Assembly (NCBI GenBank): GCA_963742685.1
Contig: CAVUNB010000015.1
Span: forward strand, 9,827-73,826
DNA from: an uncultured Actinomycetota bacterium
GTDB taxonomy: Bacteria; Actinomycetota; Actinomycetes; Propionibacteriales; Nocardioidaceae
Direction: 5' to 3'
Length of the DNA stretch: 64,000 nucleotides
Shown: positions 3,469-13,641 of the stretch, in pieces
Layout of the letters: each line of letters begins with the position of its first letter
Position numbering within the stretch: the stretch's first letter is position 1
Program-made: the position numbers and the translations under genes
Notes under the pieces: generated by a model
The model's input: only the letters and a program-made list of their open reading frames with translations
Told to the model about the DNA's origin: nothing
Databases searched by the model: none

Positions 3469-5803
3469 GTGCCGGACACCTCCCAGCGGGACGAGGACCA
3501 GGGCGCCGGGCGGATCTCCGAGAGACTGGCCGGCCGTCACCTCCTGCTCACAGGAGTCACCGGCTTCGTCGGTGAGGCGCTGCTCAGCTGCTGCTCAGCG
3601 AGACCCCCGACACCGTCCTCACCCTGCTCGTCCGGCCCAAGGGATCGACCCCCGGGACCGACCGCATCCGCTCGTTGCTGGCCAAGCCGATCTTCGGTGC
3701 GACCGTCGAGCGCGCCGGCGGCATCGACGCCGTCATGACCGCCCGGGTGCGGGTCCTCGAGGGCGACCTCGGCGACGTACCCGCGCTGCCCACCGACCTC
3801 GACGCCGTCGTGCACTGTGCGGGGGACGTCTCCTTCGACCCGCCCGTCGACGAGGGGTTCCGCACCAACGTGCTCGGCACCCGCGGTCTGCTCGAGCGGA
3901 TCGCCGAGGTCGGGCGCCGCAGGTCCACTACGTCCACATCTCCACGGCCTACGTCGCCGGCCGCCGTCGCGGCGCCGATCCCCGAGGCCCCGGTCGACCA
4001 CACCGTCGACGTCGACGCCGAGACCGAGTGGGGCATGGCCCAGCGCCGGGTCGTGGAGCACGCGTCCCGTTCCGCCGACGTCCTCGACCAAGCTGCGGTC
4101 GAAGGCCGAGCGCGAGCACGGACGGGCGGGCCTGCTGACCGCTGCCGCCGCGACCGAGGACCGAGCGCCGCGACTGGGTGGCGCGCGAGCTCGTGCGGGT
4201 CGGCACCGAACGAGCCAGGTCGCTCGGCTGGACCGACTGCTACACGTTCACCAAGGCCCTCGGCGAGCGCGTCGTCGAGGAGCACGCCCGGGTCGCGCCG
4301 ACCACGATCGTCCGCCCGAGCATCATCGAGTCCGCCCTCCGCCGCCCCTACCCGGGCTGGATCGAGGGCTTCAAGATGGCCGAGCCGCTGATCCTCGCCT
4401 ACGGCCGCGGCGAGCTCCCCGAGTTCCCCGCCGCCGGCGACACCATCGTCGACATCGTGCCGGTCGACCACGTCGTCGCGGCGATCGTGGCCGCGCTCGC
4501 CACGCCTCCGGAGGCCGGCGCTGCGGCCTACTTCCACGTCGTCTCCGGTGCGCGCAACCCGCTCACGTTCCGGAGGCTGTACGCCGCCGTCCGTGCCTAC
4601 TTCGACGAGCACCCGTTCGACATCGGCGACCGGGGATCGGCCCGGCTGCCGGAGTGGCGCTTCCCGGGCGCCCAGAGCGTCGAACGCCTGCTGGCCACCA
4701 GCGAGCGCGCCCACAAGGCGGCCGACTACCTCGTCGGGCACGCACCCCGGAGCACCCGCACGCTGTCCATGGCGCGCAACCTCGACCGGCAGGGCCGCCG
4801 GCTGGAGTTCCTGCGCCGCTACCTCGACCTCTACCGGGAGTACGCCGAAGCCGAGCTGCGCTTCGACGACGCGCACACCCGCGGGCTGCTCGACGCCCTC
4901 CACCCCGACGACCGCGCCGCGTTCGGCTTCGACATCGACGAGGTCGACTGGGACCACTACCTCCGCGAGGTGCACTGCCCGGCGGTGACGGCCCCGATCC
5001 GCTCGCACGACGAGGTGCGCCGCGCCCGCGCGAAGCCGGCCGACGGCCAGCCTCCGGCCGGTCAGGCAGACCGAGCAGCGCACGGCGGCGCTTCTTCGAC
5101 ATGGACGGCACCCTGTTGTCCTCCAACGTCATCGAGACCTACCTGTGGATGCGGCTGCCAGGACCTCTCCCCCGCCGAGCGCGTCGGTGAGCTCGGCCGG
5201 ATCGCGACCCGCCTGCCCGGGCTGGTCCGTGCCGAGCGGCGCGAGCGCAGCGCGTTCCTGCGGTCGATCTACAAGCGAGTACGCCGGCGCCCGGCTCGCC
5301 GACCTCGACAGCGGTGGTCGACGAGGTGCTCACCGATCACGTCCTGTCGCGGCTCGCGCCCGCCGCCGTACGCCGCATCCGCGAGCACCGCGCAGCGGGC
5401 CACACCACCGTGCTGATCACCGGCGCGATCCGGCCGCTCACCCGGCCGATCGCGCCCCTCTTCGACCACATCGAGGCGGCCGACCTGGCCGTCGACGACC
5501 GGGGCATCTGCACCGGCTTCCTCGCCGCGTCGCCGCTGGTCGGCGAGTCCCGGGCCGCGTGGATGCAGCACTGGGCGGCCACCGAGGGCATCGATCTCGC
5601 GAACAGCTACGGCTACGCCGACAGCCACTCCGACCTGCCGCTGCTCGCGGCCGTGGGCAGACCGGTCGCGGTGAGCCCGGACGTGTCGCTTGTCGAGGCA
5701 TGCCCGGCGCGCGCACTGGACGATCGTCGACTGGGCCAGCCCGGACGTCGCGTCCCGTCCCCTCAACCCCGCGGGCTCTATCAGTTCTCGGGGCAGCCGA
5801 TGA
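3469..5803 (+). CDS. Fatty acyl-CoA reductase (NAD_binding_4/Sterile) fused to a C-terminal HAD-IB phosphatase; several frameshifts
   Basis: LLTGVTGFVG, HCAGDVSFD, YTFTKALGE, IVRPSIIES..PYPGWIEG and DIVPVDHV, then FFDMDGTL...GYADSHSDLPLL..AVSPD, spread over ORFs 3469, 3675, 3817, 4178 and 5314. Confidence 0.8.
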
Positions 5804-7030
5804 TGCTGGCGCTGCAGATGTACCGCTCGCTCCCCCGCCACCTGGCCGGGCGGGCCGTCGGTGACCGGCTCCCCGGGATCCTGCTCCGGCTACGCCGCTC
5901 CCCTGCGCCTGGTGACGATCGACGAGCCGAAGGTCGAGCGGCCGGGCTGGGCCCGGCTGAGGACCCGCCTCTCCGGCGTCTGCGGCTCCGACCTCGGCGC
6001 GCTGTCCGGGCGCACGAGCCGCTACTTCTCCGGCGTCGTGTCGTTGCCGTTCGTGCCCGGCCACGAGGTCGTGGCCGACCTCCTCGAGGACTGCGAGGAC
6101 CTTCCCGCCGGCACCCGCGTGGTGATCGACCCGGTCCTGACCTGCGCCGCCCGCGGCGTCGCACCGTGCGAGGCGTGCGCCGAGGGCCTCACCAACCGCT
6201 GCAGCGGGATCACGGTCGGCCATCTCTCCCCCGGACTCCAGACCGGCTTCTGCACCGACACCGGCGGCGGCTGGGGCGAGACCCTCACCGCCCACCGCAG
6301 CCAGCTGCACCCGGTGCCCGAAGGTCTCTCGGACGAGCAGGCGATCCTGATCGAGCCGATCGCGTGCGCGGTCCACACCGCGCTGCGCGCCCGCGTCGAG
6401 AACAACGCGCGCGTGCTGGTGAGCGGCGCCGGCTCGGTCGGCCTGCTCACGACGCTGGCTCTGCGCAGCCTCACCGACGCCGGCGAGATCACCGTCGTCG
6501 CGAAGTACGCCCACCAGCGCGAGCTCGCGCTCCAGCTGGGCGCCACCGAGGTGGTGTCGCCCGGCGAGACGCTGCGCCGGCTGCGCCGCTCCACGGGCGC
6601 GTTCGCGGTGACGCCCGAGTTCTCCGCGCCCTACCTCCTCGGTGGCGTCGACATCGCCATCGACGCGGTCGGCAGCAAGGGCTCGCTGGAGACGGCGCTC
6701 AACACCACCCGTGCCGGTGGTCGCGTCGTGCTGTCCGGGATGCCCGCCGCCGCCGATCTGTCGGCCGCCTGGTTCCGTGAGCTCGAGATCATCGGCTCCT
6801 ACTCGTCCGCTCGCGTCGAGCCCGGGGGCCGCAGCGCCTTCGACATCGCCACCGACCTGGTCGCCGGTGATGCGGTCTCCCAGCTGGCGAAGGGCGTCGC
6901 GTCCTATCCGCTGCACCGCTGGCGCGAGGCGCTCGACCACGCGCACGGCGCCGGTCGACTCGGCAGCATCAAGGTTGCCTTCGATCCCAGACGACAAGGT
7001 CATTCCACACAAGGGGGAACTCACTCGTGA
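5800..7030 (+). CDS. Zn-dependent medium-chain dehydrogenase/reductase; frameshift near 5880
   Basis: GVCGSD, PGHEVV, C-x7-CEAC-x7-C structural Zn cluster, GAGSVG. Confidence 0.85.
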
Positions 7031-8608
7031 GCCGTCCAGGTTTCGTGCTCGAGGTCGATGACCGCACACCGCCGCTGGTGGTCCACGAGGGCCTGGGCTT
7101 CCGGTTGGAGACCTTCCCGCAGGGCACGCGCGTCATCTACCCGCCCGAGTCGCTGCCCGCGATCGACGACGTCGACGCCGCGATCCGCGAGGCGCTGCTC
7201 AACCCGGTCGACGCCGACCCGCTGCCCACCAAGCTGTTCGCCGGGATGCGGCTGACCATCGCGTTCGACGACATCTCGTTGCCGCTGCCGTCGATGAAGG
7301 CGCCGGACATCCGCCAGCGGATCATCGAGGCCGTGCTCACGATGGCCGCCGATGCCGGGGTCGACGACGTCGAAGATCGTGGCCGCCAACGCGCTGCACC
7401 GACGGATGACGGCGGCCGAGCTCAAGCACATCGTCGGCGAGCGGGTCTTCCGGTCCTTCTTCCCGCAGGGCGACCTCTACAACCACGACGCCGAGGACCG
7501 CGACAACCTGCTCCACATCGGGATGACCGACCGGGGCGAGGACATCGAGATCAACCGGCGAGCCGCCGAGTCCGACCTCCTGGTCTACGTCAACGTCAAC
7601 CTCGTCGCCATGGACGGCGGGCACAAGTCGGTGCCGATCGGGCTGGCGTCGTACAAGAGCCTCCGGCACCACCACAACCCCAAGACGATGGTCCAGTCGC
7701 ACTCCTTCATGGACCACACCAAGTCGCACCTCCACCACTCGGCCTGGCGGATGGGGCGCTACCTCAAGGACCACCTCGACATCTTCCAGATCGAGACGAC
7801 GCTCAACAACGACGTCTTCGGGGCGCCCTACGACTTCCTGCTCAAGCGCGAGTGGGAGTGGTCGGTGCGAGACCAGGCCTCGATGCTTGCCGTACGCCGC
7901 GGGCTCGGCGCGGCACCGCGTCGACTGCGGCACAAGCTGTTCCACGACCTGCGCTCGCCCTACGGCCTGACCGGGATCAACGCCGGTGACACCGAGGCCG
8001 TGCACGAGCGCACCATCGAGATGGTGCACCGCCAGCAGCTCGTCGAGGTGCAGGGCCAGACCGACGTGCTGGTGCTGGGCGTGCCCTACCTCGGCCCCTA
8101 CAACGTGAACTCGTCGATGAACCCGATCCTGGCGACCTGCATGGGGCTGGGCTACTTCTTCAACTCCTACCGCGGGCAGCCCGTCGTCCGCCGCGGCGGG
8201 GCGGTGATCCTCTACCACCCGCTGAACGAGGGCTTCAACCAGCTGCACCACCCGAGCTACGTCGACTTCTACGAGGAGATCCTGGCCGAGTCGACCGACC
8301 CGGCGGTGATCGCGGCGAAGTACGAGGAGCAGTTCGCGACCGATCCCTGGTACATCCACCTCTACCGCACCTCGCACGCCTACCACGGCGTCCACCCCTT
8401 CTACATGTGGTACTGGGCGGCGCACGCGATGGACCACGTCGACGAGGTCATCTGGGTCGGCGCCGACCGCAAGGTCGCCTCGCGGCTCGGCTTCCGCGCG
8501 GCCTCGACGCTCTCCGACGCGCTGGAGATGGCGTCGGGTGCGGTCGGCAACAACCCGTCGATCTCCTACATGCACAACCCGCCGCACCTGATCGCGGACG
8601 TGAAGTGA
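7027..8608 (+). CDS. Lactate racemase (LarA/DUF2088) domain protein; frameshift near 7370
   Basis: IAFDDISLP, ANALHRRMT, NHDAED, MDGGHKS; ORFs 7027..7989 plus 7352..8608. Confidence 0.78.
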
Positions 8609-8615
8609 GGATGTC

Positions 8616-9539
8616 GTGAGCTGGCTGAGAGACGGTGTCTCCGACGTACGCCGCGTGGCGGACGGCTGGCGCTGGGGCCGTCGCTCCCAGGTGCCCCGCT
8701 CGGCCGAGCCGTTCGTGCCGGCGCAGCAGACCACCGTGTTCAACACCGACTGGGCCCGTCGCCGGCCGGCGAAGATCGCCCGCGAGGCCGTGCAGAAGGG
8801 CGCCCTGGAGCCGTTGTTCCGCTCGCAGGTGCGCACCCACGTCGAGGGCCTCGATGTCCTGACGAAGCTCGACGGTCCGGTGATCTTCGTGGCCAACCAC
8901 GCCAGCCACCTGGACACGCCGCTGATCCTGCTCTCACTGCCGGCGGAGTGGCGTCGCCGTACCGCCGTCGCCGCCGCCGCCGACTACTTCTTCGACACGT
9001 GGTGGCGCGCCGTCGGCTCCTCGATCGCGTTCAACACGTTCCCGATCGAGCGACGTGGCGGCACGATGGCGACCACGCCGGGCGAGGTGCTCGCCGACGG
9101 CTGGAGCCTGGTGATCTTCCCCGAGGGCACCCGCTCGCCCGACGGCTTCGTCGGGAAGTTCCAGTACGGCGCGGCCTACCTCGCCACCAGGCACCAGGTG
9201 CCCGTCATCCCCATCGCCCACCGCGGGACCTACGCGGCCATGCCGCGCGGGCAGGGCTGGCCCAGCCGGGGGCGTCGTCGGCTCACCGTCCGCTTCGGGG
9301 AACCGCTCCAACCGGGCGCCGACGAGTCGCCCCGCGACTTCGCGCCCCGGATCCGCGACGCGGTCGCCGCCCTGCTCGACGAGGACCAGAGCACGTGGTG
9401 GGAAGCGCGGCGCAGGGCTGCTGCCGGCACCACTCCCGACCCGTCCGGACCTGCCACCGCACGGTGGCGCCGGGTGTGGGAGCAGACCGCGACGATCGCC
9501 TCGCCCGAGGCTGGGCCACGGCGGGTCTGGCCCCACTAG
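8616..9539 (+). CDS. Lysophospholipid/glycerolipid acyltransferase (PlsC-like)
   Basis: NHASHLD (HX4D) and FPEGTRS motifs. Confidence 0.9.
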   Translation: MSWLRDGVSDVRRVADGWRWGRRSQVPRSAEPFVPAQQTTVFNTDWARRRPAKIAREAVQKGALEPLFRSQVRTHVEGLDVLTKLDGPVIFVANHASHLDTPLILLSLPAEWRRRTAVAAAADYFFDTWWRAVGSSIAFNTFPIERRGGTMATTPGEVLADGWSLVIFPEGTRSPDGFVGKFQYGAAYLATRHQVPVIPIAHRGTYAAMPRGQGWPSRGRRRLTVRFGEPLQPGADESPRDFAPRIRDAVAALLDEDQSTWWEARRRAAAGTTPDPSGPATARWRRVWEQTATIASPEAGPRRVWPH

Positions 9540-9548
9540 TATTCCCGC

Positions 9549-10343
9549 GTGACCGACCACAAGATCCTCGCCCAGCAGGCTGCCGCCGAGCTCACCTCAC
9601 TCACCGGCATCGAGCGACACGACGTCGCACTGGTCCTCGGCTCCGGTTGGTTGCCGGCCGTCGACGCCCTCGGGCCGGCCACCGCCGAGATCAACACCAC
9701 CGACCTGCCGGGCTTCCACGCCGCCGGCGTGGTCGGCCACTCGGGCAAGATCCGCAGCATCGCGGTCGGCGAGAAGCACGTCCTGGTCTTCCTCAGCCGC
9801 ACCCACTTCTACGAGGGCAAGGGCGTCGCCGCCGTCGTGCACCCGATCCGCACCGCGGCCGCGGCCGGCTGCTCGACGATCGTGCTCACCAACGGCTGTG
9901 GCGGTCTCAAGGACACGTTCCAGCCCGGCCAGCCGGTGCTGATCTCCGACCACATCAACCTGACGGCCACCAGCCCGATCGAGGGCGCCAACTTCGTCGA
10001 CCTGACCGACCTCTACTCCCCGCGCCTGCGCGCACTGTGCAAGGAGATCGACCCGACCCTCGACGAGGGGGTCTACGTCCAGTTCCCCGGCCCGCACTAC
10101 GAGACCCCGGCCGAGATCGGCATGGTCCGCGCCATCGGCGGCCACCTGGTCGGCATGAGCACCACGCTCGAGGCGATCGCGGCTCGTGAGGCCGGGATGG
10201 AGGTGCTCGGCATCAGCCTGGTCACCAACCTCGCGGCCGGCATCAGTGGCGAGCCGCTCAACCACGACGAGGTCCTCGAGGCCGGCAAGGCCGCGGCCAG
10301 CCGGATGGGCGACCTGCTCGGCCAGATCGTTCCCCGGATCTGA
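9549..10343 (+). CDS. punA: Purine-nucleoside phosphorylase (trimeric type)
   Basis: VLGSG, RTHFYEG, GPHYETPAE, VGMST, TNLAAG, HDEV. Confidence 0.93.
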   Translation: MTDHKILAQQAAAELTSLTGIERHDVALVLGSGWLPAVDALGPATAEINTTDLPGFHAAGVVGHSGKIRSIAVGEKHVLVFLSRTHFYEGKGVAAVVHPIRTAAAAGCSTIVLTNGCGGLKDTFQPGQPVLISDHINLTATSPIEGANFVDLTDLYSPRLRALCKEIDPTLDEGVYVQFPGPHYETPAEIGMVRAIGGHLVGMSTTLEAIAAREAGMEVLGISLVTNLAAGISGEPLNHDEVLEAGKAAASRMGDLLGQIVPRI

Positions 10344-10344
10344 C

Positions 10345-10917
10345 ATGCCCAAGATCGCGGCCGACTCGGTGGCCGCTCACCGGATCGAGGTCCGGCAGCG
10401 GATCTTCGGCGCCTTCGCGCGCCTGATGGGCGAGCACAGCTTCGAGGGCATCACCATGGCCCAGATCGCGGCCGAGGCCGGGATCGGCCGCACCACGATC
10501 TACCACCACTTCGCCGATCGCGAGGCGATCGTGGTCGGCTTCGCCAGCCACGAGACCGACCGCTACCTCGCCAGGCTGCGCGACGAGCTCGACGACGACA
10601 CCAGCGCCGAGCAGCAGCTGCGGACCTACGTCCGTCACCACCTCGTTGCCGGTGCCGACTTCCACATGGGGCTCGGGCCCCAGCTGTACGGGCTGTTGAG
10701 CGAGCCGTCGCGCGGCGAGATCCGCGAGCACGTGGTCGCCGTGGAGACGGTGCTGCGCGACATCATCGAGGCAGGCATGGAAGCCGGTGAGTTCACCCGG
10801 TCCGACGTGCCGGCGACGATGTCGCTGATCCATGCGTGCCTGAGTCCGCGACACCTGCCGGCCGACGAGGTCGAGCAGTTCGTGCTCAACGCCCTGCAGG
10901 CGCCGGCCGACAGGTAG
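10345..10917 (+). CDS. TetR family transcriptional regulator
   Basis: MPKIAADSVAAHR...ITMAQIAAEAGIGRTTIYHHF helix-turn-helix. Confidence 0.9.
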   Translation: MPKIAADSVAAHRIEVRQRIFGAFARLMGEHSFEGITMAQIAAEAGIGRTTIYHHFADREAIVVGFASHETDRYLARLRDELDDDTSAEQQLRTYVRHHLVAGADFHMGLGPQLYGLLSEPSRGEIREHVVAVETVLRDIIEAGMEAGEFTRSDVPATMSLIHACLSPRHLPADEVEQFVLNALQAPADR

Positions 10918-10929
10918 CCGCGGGTCAGG

Positions 10930-12381
10930 TCAGCGCTTGACCCGGAACTTCTCCACGGTCTTCGACGCCTCGATGCCGTCGGCGCCGAGGAAGCGGACCG
11001 TGAGGGTGTAGCCACCCGGCGCGAGCTTCGGCAGCTTCACGACGACCTTGCCGTCCTCGACCGTCACGGTGCGCTTGATCTTCTTCGCACCCTTCTTCTT
11101 CAGCACCACCACGGCCTCGCCGTCGACCTGGTCCGCACCGGCGACCTTGACGACGAGCTTGCCGCCCTTCGCGGTCGTCGGCAGCTTCTTCACCGTGGCC
11201 TTGGTCGTGGTCACGGTCGGCGCGACCGGGGTCGCAGTCACGGTCGGCGACGGGGTCGCCGACGGAGTGGGCGTGGCCGTCGGCGTCGGCGTCGGAGTCG
11301 GAGTCGCGGTCTGCTTCAGGGCCGCCCAGTCGATCGTCAGCGGGGTCTCGGTGTCCTGGCTGACGGTGGAGTGGGTGTGCGCACGCCAGGTGTAGACCGA
11401 GTAGGACCTGGTCGGGTCGAGCTTGGCCGTCTCGGCGGTCATGGCCGTGGTGAAGGCACTGGCCTGGATCTGGCCGGGCACCACGTAGGCCGCGGCCGCG
11501 AAGGACGCCATCCCGGCCTGGCTGCTCACGTCCGGCAACCCGCCGGCGGGTGCGATCCCGGCGTAGACACCGGCGTCGCCGGGGTTGGTGACGGCACTGA
11601 AGCCGGTGCCGCTCACGGAGACGGAGAGGCCATCGGCGTACGACGCACCGGTGATCGTCGCCGTCGTGGCGATCGGGTTGGCGGTGGCGGTGAAGGCTGC
11701 CGGGACCTTGTTCGGCTGCGGGTCGGCCGTGGCGTAGAAGTGCGCGCGGACCCCGGAGGCGAGCTGGCCGAGGAACGACGGCGCGAACGACCTGCCGGCG
11801 ATCGGTCGGTCGGCTGGAAGCCCGAGCGCCAGCGCCTCGTCGCTGCCGGCGGGCATCACGCCGTCCCAGTCGGGGGTGGCGGTCAGCGACTCGGCGTCCC
11901 AGCCCCCGGCGGTGTCGAAGGTGGTCACCACGACCCGCGCGGGGGCAGTCGAGTCGCTGGGCGCGGCATCGGTGCCGACGACCGAGGACACGACGGCGCT
12001 GATCCGGCCCGAGCCGTCTCCCTCGACGACCACGGTCGGGTCCTCGAGGGTGACGGCGTACTGCTGGACCTGGGTCGCGGGGTGGTTGAACGCACCCTTG
12101 ACCGAACCCTGGTAGCTGATCGTGGCCGCGCCGTTGGCGGGGTTGTAGGACCCCACGCCGCCCGCGAACGAGATGACGCCGTCGGCGTCCTCGGTCGCAC
12201 CGTCACCGAGCGTGTGGGAGGAAAGGTGGCCGTCGAACTGCTGGGAGATCTCCCAGTTGAAGACCGGCGCGACGGCCGCCTGGGCGGGCGCCGTCGCGGT
12301 GACGACCGCGAACGCACCGCCGACCAGGGCAACGGCGGCCGAACCGGCGACGAGGCGCCGGGTCGAGGTGTGGGTGGACAT
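10930..12381 (-). CDS. Secreted HtaA-like domain protein with Pro/Thr linker and Lys-rich Ig-like C-terminus
   Basis: Signal peptide ending AQA, FNWEISQQF...YQGSVKG...HFY, PT repeat; GAAAGGA RBS before ATG 12381. Confidence 0.65.
   Translation of the reverse strand: MSTHTSTRRLVAGSAAVALVGGAFAVVTATAPAQAAVAPVFNWEISQQFDGHLSSHTLGDGATEDADGVISFAGGVGSYNPANGAATISYQGSVKGAFNHPATQVQQYAVTLEDPTVVVEGDGSGRISAVVSSVVGTDAAPSDSTAPARVVVTTFDTAGGWDAESLTATPDWDGVMPAGSDEALALGLPADRPIAGRSFAPSFLGQLASGVRAHFYATADPQPNKVPAAFTATANPIATTATITGASYADGLSVSVSGTGFSAVTNPGDAGVYAGIAPAGGLPDVSSQAGMASFAAAAYVVPGQIQASAFTTAMTAETAKLDPTRSYSVYTWRAHTHSTVSQDTETPLTIDWAALKQTATPTPTPTPTATPTPSATPSPTVTATPVAPTVTTTKATVKKLPTTAKGGKLVVKVAGADQVDGEAVVVLKKKGAKKIKRTVTVEDGKVVVKLPKLAPGGYTLTVRFLGADGIEASKTVEKFRVKR
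11221..11310 (-). repeat. Low-complexity (Pro-Thr)n coding linker
   Basis: Tandem cggcgt/cggagt units encoding TATPTPTPTPTATPTPSATPSPTVTATP. Confidence 0.8.
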
Positions 12382-12395
12382 GTGGGGTGTTCCTT

Positions 12396-13641
12396 TCATC
12401 GGGTTTGATGCTGAGGTCTGGGCCGCGTGGGCACGAGCGAGATCAGTGCCGCCGCGAGGAGGAGCGCGCCGCCGAGCCACCAGAGCCGGTCGGACCCCTG
12501 TGTCGGTACGGCGGACGAGTCGGCCGACTCCACCTGCGCAGCCACGAGCACGACCGGCGCCGGGGCGGGCCCGGAGAAGGCGACCGCGACCGGTGGTGGC
12601 GGCGACGGGAGACCGACGGTCGACACCGGGGCGGCCACGGGCACGGCGGCGGTCGGGGCAGCCGTCGGGGTCGGGGAGGACGTCCCCGTGCTCGTTCTCG
12701 TGGGCGTCGGCGACTTCGTCTGCTTCGGCGGTGCCGGCGCCGAGTTGGTCACCGTCGGCGCCTTCGTCGGCGCGCCGGTGACAGCCGGGGCCGCCGCGCT
12801 GGGCGCCGTGGTCGGCGTCGGCGCGGCCGGGTCGGCGGGACTCGGCAGGTGGAGGCTGATCGGCAGGGGCACCTTGGCCGCGTCGGTGCTGCCGCCGCTG
12901 GCCCTCCAGAACGCGGCCGTGCCCAGCTGTTCCTGGAAGGCGACGAACGACTGCGGGAACGACCCCGGGTAGGCCGGCGTCACCGTGATCGACGTCGACG
13001 CCAGGTCGAACGCCGGCAGGTCGGCGAGCACGACCCGCACCGGCGGGACCGGTTCCCACTTCGTCGGGTCCTCCAGCGAGGACGCGTAGCCCCCGAGCGT
13101 CGCCGTCACCCGCGCGGTGCCGGTCGGCCACCTCGAGGGCGGGGTCGGCGACGGTGAAGAACGACATGCCGGAGTAGAAGACGACCGTGAACGAACCGGC
13201 CCACGTGACGCTCGCGGTGCCAGCCGCGGCATCGACCGAGCCGACACCGCCGCCCAGGACGACCTCGTGGTTGCTGTAGCGGCCGGACGTGGGGCTGCCC
13301 AGCGGCTGGCCGGCGCTGTCGGTGGAGAGTCCCTCCCACGTCGCCGGACCCCAGGCACCGCCGAGGAACTTCTCGATGCTGACCGCGCCGTCCACCTGCT
13401 TCCACGACGACTTCGGCAGCTTGCTGCCGCCCTTGCCCGGGTTGGGCACGACCCCGGCCGAGAGGAAGTTGTAGGTGCCGGGAGCGTGCGCCGCGTTGTT
13501 CGACTCGTTGTTGATCCCCCACCGCAGGACCGCGTTGCTCACTGCGCGAGGTCCGGTGGTGTCGTCCGCGGCGGCACCCGGTGCGAGGAGCGCGCCGACG
13601 CAGGTGAGCAGCACCAGGAGCGCGGCGAGTCGGCTACGCAC
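12396..13641 (-). CDS. Secreted, C-terminally anchored HtaA-like domain protein; frameshift near 13125
   Basis: Signal peptide, LRWGINNES, WAGSFTVVFYSG; continues in ORF 12396..13358 to a Pro/Thr linker and [15 protein letters not shown]. Confidence 0.6.

Follow-up and report, generated by a model that had tools for sequence, protein, structure and literature searches.

The elb genes of Myxococcus xanthus and the nickel-pincer enzymes of the LarA family are the closest described reference points for the subject of this analysis, a cluster of four lipid genes in a 64,000-nucleotide stretch of DNA (hereafter the window) from an uncultured soil actinobacterium (Nocardioides) of the family Nocardioidaceae. 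According to a review (PMC9131029) that covers the work of Lorenzen et al. 2014, elb is needed for ether lipids in Myxococcus and is the only relative to have been studied experimentally; elbD is flanked by elbC, listed as of "unknown function", and elbE, a short-chain dehydrogenase/reductase (SDR), while elbB encodes a HAD phosphohydrolase, and it is fatty aldehyde, but no fatty alcohol, that depends on elbD. The elbD gene is MXAN_1528 (PMC11980068), and its neighbour MXAN_1529 was placed in LarA group 15, with the histidine, lysine and histidine of the family kept (Desguin 2020 Table S3, PMC7583248). Because MXAN_1529 adjoins elbD and is no SDR, we infer that it is elbC. Clusters resembling elb have been described in Myxococcota, Acidobacteriota, Poribacteria and Latescibacterota, and ElbD matches have been reported in Actinobacteria genomes from metagenomes (PMC11868695). 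How the ether bond forms in the ElbD pathway has been a standing question since 2014. The window cluster is, on homology, a rearranged actinobacterial relative of elb that includes a LarA homologue of group 14, and we hold with moderate confidence that it would make 1-O-alkyl-glycerol-phosphate ether lipids without the flavoenzyme AGPS, the FAD-linked alkyl-dihydroxyacetone phosphate (DHAP) synthase.

The window spans positions 9827-73826 of contig C15 of the genome (G000:C15:9827-73826), and all window coordinates refer to the full stretch; the genome itself amounts to 4.14 megabase pairs in 42 contigs at ~72% GC and is 71% complete. In a plot of GC content at third codon positions (GC3) by reading frame, a coding run extends along the plus strand at ~3470-10340, changing frame several times. 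Within it, four coupled genes occupy 3469-9539 (+): a fatty acyl-CoA reductase (FAR) fused to a HAD-IB phosphatase (FAR::HAD, 3469-5803, Pfam NAD_binding_4, Sterile and HAD), a Zn-dependent medium-chain dehydrogenase of the polyol/ketose-reductase type (MDR, 5800-7030, ADH_N and ADH_zinc_N), the LarA homologue (7027-8608, 526 amino acids (aa) when intact, Lar_N and NF052592), which belongs to published group 14 and is the counterpart of ElbC, and an intact acyltransferase of the PlsC/AGPAT type (AT, 8616-9539, Acyltransferase, with the HX4D motif HASHLD). Pfam domains were called on the window's own open reading frame (ORF) pieces. The start of MDR overlaps the stop of FAR::HAD in the ATGA at 5800-5803, MDR and the LarA homologue overlap in the GTGA at 7027-7030, and AT starts after a gap of 7 nt (8609-8615). 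A first-pass annotation of the same DNA had described four genes coupled in this way, as well as their identities as FAR::HAD-IB, Zn-MDR, LarA-like protein and HX4D acyltransferase; the junctions proved exact, and the domains and the HASHLD motif agree with the assignments.

Homology to elb was assessed by BLASTP of the proteins of Nocardioides allogilvus KCTC 49020 (G018), the closest genome, against a locus from a Myxococcales genome (L154) in which HAD, LarA homologue, ElbD-type protein and SDR lie in a row, the canonical elbB-C-D-E arrangement. Every cluster gene except MDR has an elb counterpart in that locus: the LarA homologue is 49% identical to the ElbC-type protein over 521 aa (E 5e-171), the FAR part of FAR::HAD 29% identical to the N terminus of ElbD over 534 columns (E 4e-51), AT 34% identical to the C terminus of ElbD (E 4e-26, with NH(A/C)SHLD and FPEGTRSPDG motifs in common) and the HAD part of FAR::HAD 37% identical to the ElbB-type protein over 219 aa (E 1e-36). 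A further protein, P0128, with relatives labelled Myxococcales, Bradymonadia and Polyangia, shares 47% identity with the Nocardioides LarA homologue. Its gene immediately precedes that of a 1561-aa protein combining NAD_binding_4, AMP-binding, PP-binding and Acyltransferase domains, and an SDR gene comes next. The first-pass annotation had suggested, subject to verification, that elbD is clustered with HAD and DUF2088-type genes, and had proposed a BLAST check against elb; the group 15 membership of MXAN_1529 agrees with the suggestion, and the check gave the four identities listed above.

The gene set is conserved well beyond the window. The same four genes, with order and strand unchanged, were found in 10 of the 12 relatives fetched first. 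The 80 best loci came from Nocardioides, Nocardioidaceae or Propionibacteriales; ten were cut by contig ends, and in all 70 with enough flank the LarA homologue is accompanied on its own strand by FAR, HAD, MDR and AT. The complete array, again in the same order, was present in 29 of 34 loci from seven other Actinomycetota families (f19, f20, f21, f22, f25, f35 and f43). In a survey of 401 Actinomycetota genomes, about a quarter (97) scored above the cut-off of the NCBIfam model NF052592, which was near-universal in some families (f20, 10/10; f21, 20/21; f22, 31/31; f25, 20/22); f7 and f8, the large-genome families in the sample, had no such genome. Five genomes marked as unpublished (G031, G078, G118, G150 and G347) were counted only in the NF052592 and LarC tallies and contributed no loci or sequences. 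We set aside the LarA homologues of families f34, f27 and f33, at ~40% identity, below the cut-off and without lipid neighbours. The cluster is supported as a conserved lipid operon. The neighbourhood survey that had been suggested found co-occurrence of the four genes kept both in Nocardioidaceae and in other families, and the LarA-like operon neighbourhood is real. It is not new in every respect, since the gene context of LarA group 14 stands in Table S1 of Desguin 2020 (PMC7583248), with COG0204, COG0560 and COG1063 each at 88% and COG3320 at 50%. That tabulation and the elb-like clusters of other phyla are already known; a literature text search never found "lactate racemase" together with "ether lipid" or "elbD".

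Family f22, with its 31 positive genomes, is Rubrobacteraceae, and it links the gene set to a group in which ether lipids are abundant. The first-pass annotation was not aware of ether lipids in this group of bacteria; in the same phylum, ~46% of the core lipids of Rubrobacterales are ether lipids, according to PMC10821996, which cites Sinninghe Damste 2023. The gene order in Rubrobacter radiotolerans is plsY, FAR::HAD, MDR and LarA homologue, and in five Rubrobacteraceae loci the other three genes were present with no match to AT beside the cluster. Sinninghe Damste et al. in 2023 reportedly put forward a putative Rubrobacter operon for 1-O-alkylglycerol-phosphate, which may correspond to the present gene set. 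As for other ether-lipid routes, DUF2229 (PF09989; PlsA/Ger, the anaerobic route) was found in none of four Rubrobacteraceae genomes, with a positive Thermotoga control, and PF09989 was likewise not found in the 71%-complete genome of the window. No FAD-linked AGPS was found by Pfam among the cluster genes, to which that search was confined. The suggested gene-for-step mapping onto the eukaryotic pathway stays putative; the cluster holds no AGPS-like gene.

The enzymes around the LarA homologue point to glycerolipid synthesis. FAR::HAD is a single ORF of 764-777 aa in relatives (~765 aa when intact); the orthologue in N. allogilvus (L013) carries the motifs GVTGFVG, YTFTK and DMDGT, and among solved structures the nearest is the fatty acyl-CoA reductase 7eoz (E 4e-51). 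The closest solved structures to MDR are L-idonate 5-dehydrogenase, ketose reductase, butanediol dehydrogenase and sorbitol dehydrogenase, and that to AT is PlsC of Thermotoga maritima (5kym). A single 840-aa ORF (L018:8330-10852) of one Nocardioides genome encodes both the LarA homologue and AT, and P0235 is a second fusion of LarA homologue to acyltransferase. At locus L109 the order is MDR, LarA homologue, a DAGK-type lipid kinase, a FAR::acyltransferase fusion, HAD and PlsY. These domain fusions and the arrangement at L109 link parts of the cluster to glycerolipid synthesis. MDR adjoins every LarA homologue that keeps the cofactor residues in a lipid-gene context, except at L110, where neither FAR::HAD nor MDR is present. 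At that locus (L110:6128-8941 and 11595-11987), the LarA homologue is followed by a GPAT-like acyltransferase (Acyltransferase and GPAT_C), with a nickel regulator of the nikR type and a ZnuA-type ABC transporter nearby.

The same enzymes would also suit a different product. In other bacteria, wax-ester synthesis draws on FAR enzymes of this type, and the operon could make a lipid derived from a fatty alcohol or aldehyde but without an ether bond, such as a wax ester, an acylated long-chain diol or some other neutral or storage lipid. In that case the LarA homologue and MDR would tailor a polyol head group. The match of FAR to a fatty acyl-CoA reductase, the resemblance of MDR to polyol dehydrogenases and the lack of a demonstration of ether lipids in Nocardioides are all compatible with such a product. 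We nevertheless judge it unlikely: Pfam found no wax synthase in the cluster, homology and fusions point instead to glycerol-phosphate acyltransferases, PlsY and a lipid kinase, and elb, the sole relative with experimental work behind it, is needed for ether lipids (PMC9131029).

Within the ether-lipid reading, most depends on what the LarA homologue does. The N. allogilvus orthologue (L013) scores 906 bits on NF052592, the "LarAH14/15/16 family" (cut-off 740), and the larger piece of the window copy, which is split by a frameshift, scores 723 bits. The window copy retains the motifs FDDISLPLP, ALHRR, GGHKS, HHN and PWYIHLYRT. We read active-site residues in 137 sequences by alignment to LarA of Lactobacillus plantarum. 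D82 (ribose-binding), H124 (catalytic), K200 (cofactor tether) and H216 (nickel ligand), which correspond to Asp72, His108, Lys184 and His200 in L. plantarum LarA numbering, are kept in 132 of these and in the window copy. The second catalytic histidine (the His174 position) is replaced in all 137, by asparagine in 130, and the position of Arg75, which binds carboxylate or phosphate, holds leucine, isoleucine or valine in 127. The same residue pattern is given for LarA group 14 in Desguin 2020 Table S3 (PMC7583248). Among solved structures, the single-histidine LarA-like proteins 9q2u, 9q3k and 9q3j come closest (sequence E 9e-40; fold TM 0.69/0.75). An AlphaFold model built on a 10-sequence alignment, of medium quality (mean pLDDT 63), served to confirm the fold only, and active-site residues were not read from it. 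Regarding nomenclature, the "LarAH15" of a 2024 JBC paper is a gluconate epimerase of Phytophthora and seems to be distinct from group 15 as numbered in 2020. In another protein of 947 aa (P0196, 13 cluster members, ENA/Logan), a LarA homologue of this family is combined with a chlorophyll a/b-binding domain; the source is presumably a eukaryotic alga, and the fusion may be an artefact of the gene model.

LarA enzymes invert secondary alcohols via a keto intermediate (PMC7583248), and the stereochemistry of Rubrobacter ether lipids was left undetermined in the literature (PMC10821996), both of which would fit a homologue that inverts C2 of glycerol and thereby interconverts lipids or precursors of the glycerol-3-phosphate and glycerol-1-phosphate types, instead of or besides forming an ether bond. 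The residue readings run the other way: the second catalytic histidine is required for stereo-inversion, and its absence from all 137 sequences examined makes this role highly unlikely. Solved relatives with a single histidine are moreover without lactate racemase activity and have been proposed to act on a single enantiomer (PMC12611868). Epimerisation of the lipid backbone, which the first-pass annotation had offered as one role for this protein, is unlikely given the same missing histidine; the conserved lipid operon and the link to elb are the parts of that interpretation that stand.

We tentatively propose instead that the LarA homologue (groups 14 and 15, including ElbC) may be the AGPS-independent ether-forming enzyme of aerobic bacterial ether-lipid synthesis, a possibility we rate well below the ether-lipid product itself. 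In such a scheme, FAR would reduce an acyl thioester, giving a fatty aldehyde or alcohol. The LarA homologue would use the nickel-pincer cofactor to take the hydride from C2 of a glycerol-phosphate intermediate, a hidden redox step, acting on one face only and without a carboxylate-binding arginine, and the resulting 2-keto (DHAP-type) state would permit an alkyl-oxygen bond to form at C1. One route that would fit the data is that the hemiacetal of a fatty aldehyde loses water and takes the hydride back to give 1-alkyl-DHAP. The polyol-type Zn dehydrogenase (ElbE in Myxococcus) would then reduce the ketone with NAD(P)H, the acyltransferase would acylate sn-2 and the HAD domain would remove a phosphate. 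The scheme is suggested by the single catalytic histidine, the absence of a carboxylate-binding arginine, a partner of ketoreductase type, the elbD-dependent aldehyde and the lack of AGPS in the cluster.

Cofactor supply is largely in keeping with a nickel-pincer enzyme. The window's genome encodes LarB (C42:96633-97250) beside LarC (C42:97472-97987), with LarE on contig C25. Among Nocardioides, LarC occurs in all seven genomes with the LarA homologue, which is missing from all nine genomes without LarC; one of the genomes without the homologue, the complete genome G011, also lacks LarB. In family f19, LarC is present in 3/3 genomes with the homologue versus 2/16 of the remainder. Dependence of the LarA homologue on the nickel-pincer cofactor is, on these co-occurrences, likely; it is graded no higher because some genomes of family f25 keep an intact cluster without LarB or LarC.

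A subset of LarA homologues has lost the cofactor residues. This degenerate subtype of ~505 aa comprises five sequences, at L021 (7959-9473), L022 (7664-9175), L105 (8001-9518), L106 (8001-9518) and L107, in which the C-terminal motifs are kept but the catalytic histidine, the tether lysine and the segment carrying the nickel-binding histidine are lost. It matches group 16 of Desguin 2020, with COG0204 and COG0560 as context and lysine changed to glycine, and may be a pseudoenzyme or scaffold form, judging from these residues. MDR is missing beside all five degenerate forms, so that it travels with the cofactor-competent form; this co-occurrence fits a LarA homologue that makes a ketone and an MDR that reduces it.

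Several observations weigh against the ether-lipid reading or against the part given to the LarA homologue in it. All five degenerate forms adjoin FAR::HAD, with the acyltransferase on the other side in at least three, and their retention in the cluster implies that the LarA homologue has some cofactor-free role; its shared role may perhaps be other than cofactor chemistry. LarC had no match in nine f25 genomes carrying the homologue. In four of these, from two genera (G044, G416, G212 and G146, with loci L112, L113, L116 and L115, respectively), which are 94-98% complete and include one single-contig assembly, PF01969 (LarC) was not found and LarB was below cut-off, and yet the whole cluster and all cofactor residues are intact; either the cofactor is unneeded there or it is obtained otherwise. 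To our knowledge, the proposed ether-forming LarA chemistry is without precedent. The group 14 enzyme of Frankia was inactive in seven hydroxyacid assays, and the function of the group was listed as unknown (Desguin 2020, PMC7583248). Pfam found neither the AMP-binding (acyl-CoA synthetase) and PP-binding (acyl carrier protein, ACP) domains of ElbD in the four proteins nor an ElbE-type SDR among them, a Zn-dependent dehydrogenase standing in that place. Pontiella has elbD homologues, yet ether lipids were undetected in it (PMC11868695), and reports of ether lipids in Nocardioides did not turn up in a literature check, itself a weak one. Lastly, the cluster is accessory within that genus, the LarA homologue occurring in 7 of the 19 Nocardioides genomes sampled in a first draw.

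The window copy of the operon is itself interrupted. At least six frame changes within 6 kb break three of the four genes (GC3 plot and tblastn frames), and AT is without a frameshift by the same two lines of evidence. Protein-to-DNA alignment against the closest relative splits FAR::HAD over at least five frame pieces and places one frameshift in MDR near 5880 and one in the LarA homologue near 7373; the presence of frameshifts had been stated in the first-pass annotation and holds for these three genes. Compared with the locus in N. allogilvus (L013, 87.5% DNA identity), the indels are mostly 1-nt insertions outside homopolymers. Further neighbouring pairs of ORFs in the window overlap in different frames, for example 21999-23450/23368-23877 and 56970-58673/58525-60129.

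So many frame changes in so short a distance, in a cluster that is dispensable within its genus, might mean that the operon of this organism is a dead pseudogene array with real frameshifts. We consider this quite unlikely. GC3 stays at 0.9-1.0 inside every frame piece, none of which contains an in-frame stop, and MDR and the LarA homologue keep 91-95% protein identity to N. allogilvus. Moreover, the essential gene rpoB is split over two frames near 442705 in the same assembly (C35:442061-445419) and whole in N. allogilvus, which points to indel errors throughout an assembly that is only 71% complete and in 42 contigs. Because the genes are uninterrupted in all 12 relatives fetched first and rpoB of the same genome is shifted, the operon frameshifts are very probably assembly indel errors rather than gene decay.

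Genes next to the cluster were considered as possible members. A purine-nucleoside phosphorylase gene (9549-10343, +, TIGR01698, 328 bits) begins 9 nt after AT; we rejected it as part of the operon, this neighbour being common only with the closest relative, N. allogilvus. A TetR regulator with a weak likeness to FadR (10342-10917, +) lies 0.8 kb downstream of the cluster and was likewise rejected, as it is absent beside the cluster in all 80 loci. Farther out, the flanks carry a 903-aa protein with an HtaA (haem-uptake) domain (10930-13641, -), an EryCIII-like glycosyltransferase that is apparently frame-broken (1190-2887, -) and an AIG2/GGACT-like protein (7-1173, +).

A FadR-like regulator nearby, and the accessory distribution of the cluster within Nocardioides, would suit remodelling or degradation of lipids (for example, salvage of lysolipids or alkylglycerols) rather than synthesis de novo. 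Such a role is very unlikely, in our view, given that this TetR gene is conserved beside the cluster in none of the 80 loci, that FAR and acyltransferase are biosynthetic activities, that the cluster is near-universal in families f20, f21 and f22, and that it lies among housekeeping genes at L106 and next to plsY in Rubrobacter.

For the preferred reading, synthesis of alkylglycerol ether lipids, the main value lies in the candidate role of a nickel-pincer-type enzyme. As the LarA homologue matches ElbC, a protein of unknown function, a so far unsolved step in how bacteria make ether lipids can be put to the test. If the proposal is true, it would give the LarA family its first lipid substrate and first non-racemase reaction, and nickel-pincer enzymology a new reaction type; bacterial alkylglycerol lipids being in use as environmental biomarkers, it would also yield a compact genetic marker by which their aerobic producers could be recognised.

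Compared with the described systems, the window cluster is closest to elbA-E of M. xanthus. Both share a FAR, an AGPAT-type acyltransferase, a HAD-IB phosphatase, a LarA homologue and an NAD(P)-dependent oxidoreductase, and neither includes an AGPS gene. They differ in how these parts are joined, FAR being fused to acyltransferase in ElbD and to HAD in Nocardioides; ElbD also has acyl-CoA synthetase and ACP domains that are missing from the Nocardioides cluster, the SDR ElbE is replaced by a Zn-dependent dehydrogenase, and the LarA homologue belongs to group 15 in elb (ElbC) and to group 14 in Nocardioides. The Rubrobacter genes are similar in another way, with FAR::HAD, Zn dehydrogenase and LarA homologue in the same order as in Nocardioides; there, however, plsY lies upstream and no PlsC-type acyltransferase follows downstream. 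The eukaryotic and myxobacterial AGPS route (GNPAT, FAR1, AGPS and acyl/alkyl-DHAP reductase) follows the same logic of a reductase-supplied alkyl chain, an acyltransferase acting on a triose-phosphate backbone and a ketoreductase, but where it uses FAD-linked AGPS the Nocardioides cluster has a nickel-pincer-type enzyme.

Among LarA proteins, the members of group 14 (Franean1_4168 of Frankia, Afer_1430 and YM304_22240) share family, residue pattern and tabulated neighbours with the window gene, and the paper that lists the group makes no connection to lipids or elb (PMC7583248). The solved proteins LarASp and LarABw (9q2u, 9q3k and 9q3j; PMC12611868) resemble the window homologue, to which they are ~22% identical, in having one catalytic histidine, the cofactor lysine, the nickel histidine and a length of ~500 aa. 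Their genes, in contrast, lie among glycolysis and sugar genes, with phosphorylated sugars as proposed substrates (PMC12611868), and their lysine at the arginine-75 position is leucine, isoleucine or valine in the window family, whose neighbours are lipid genes.

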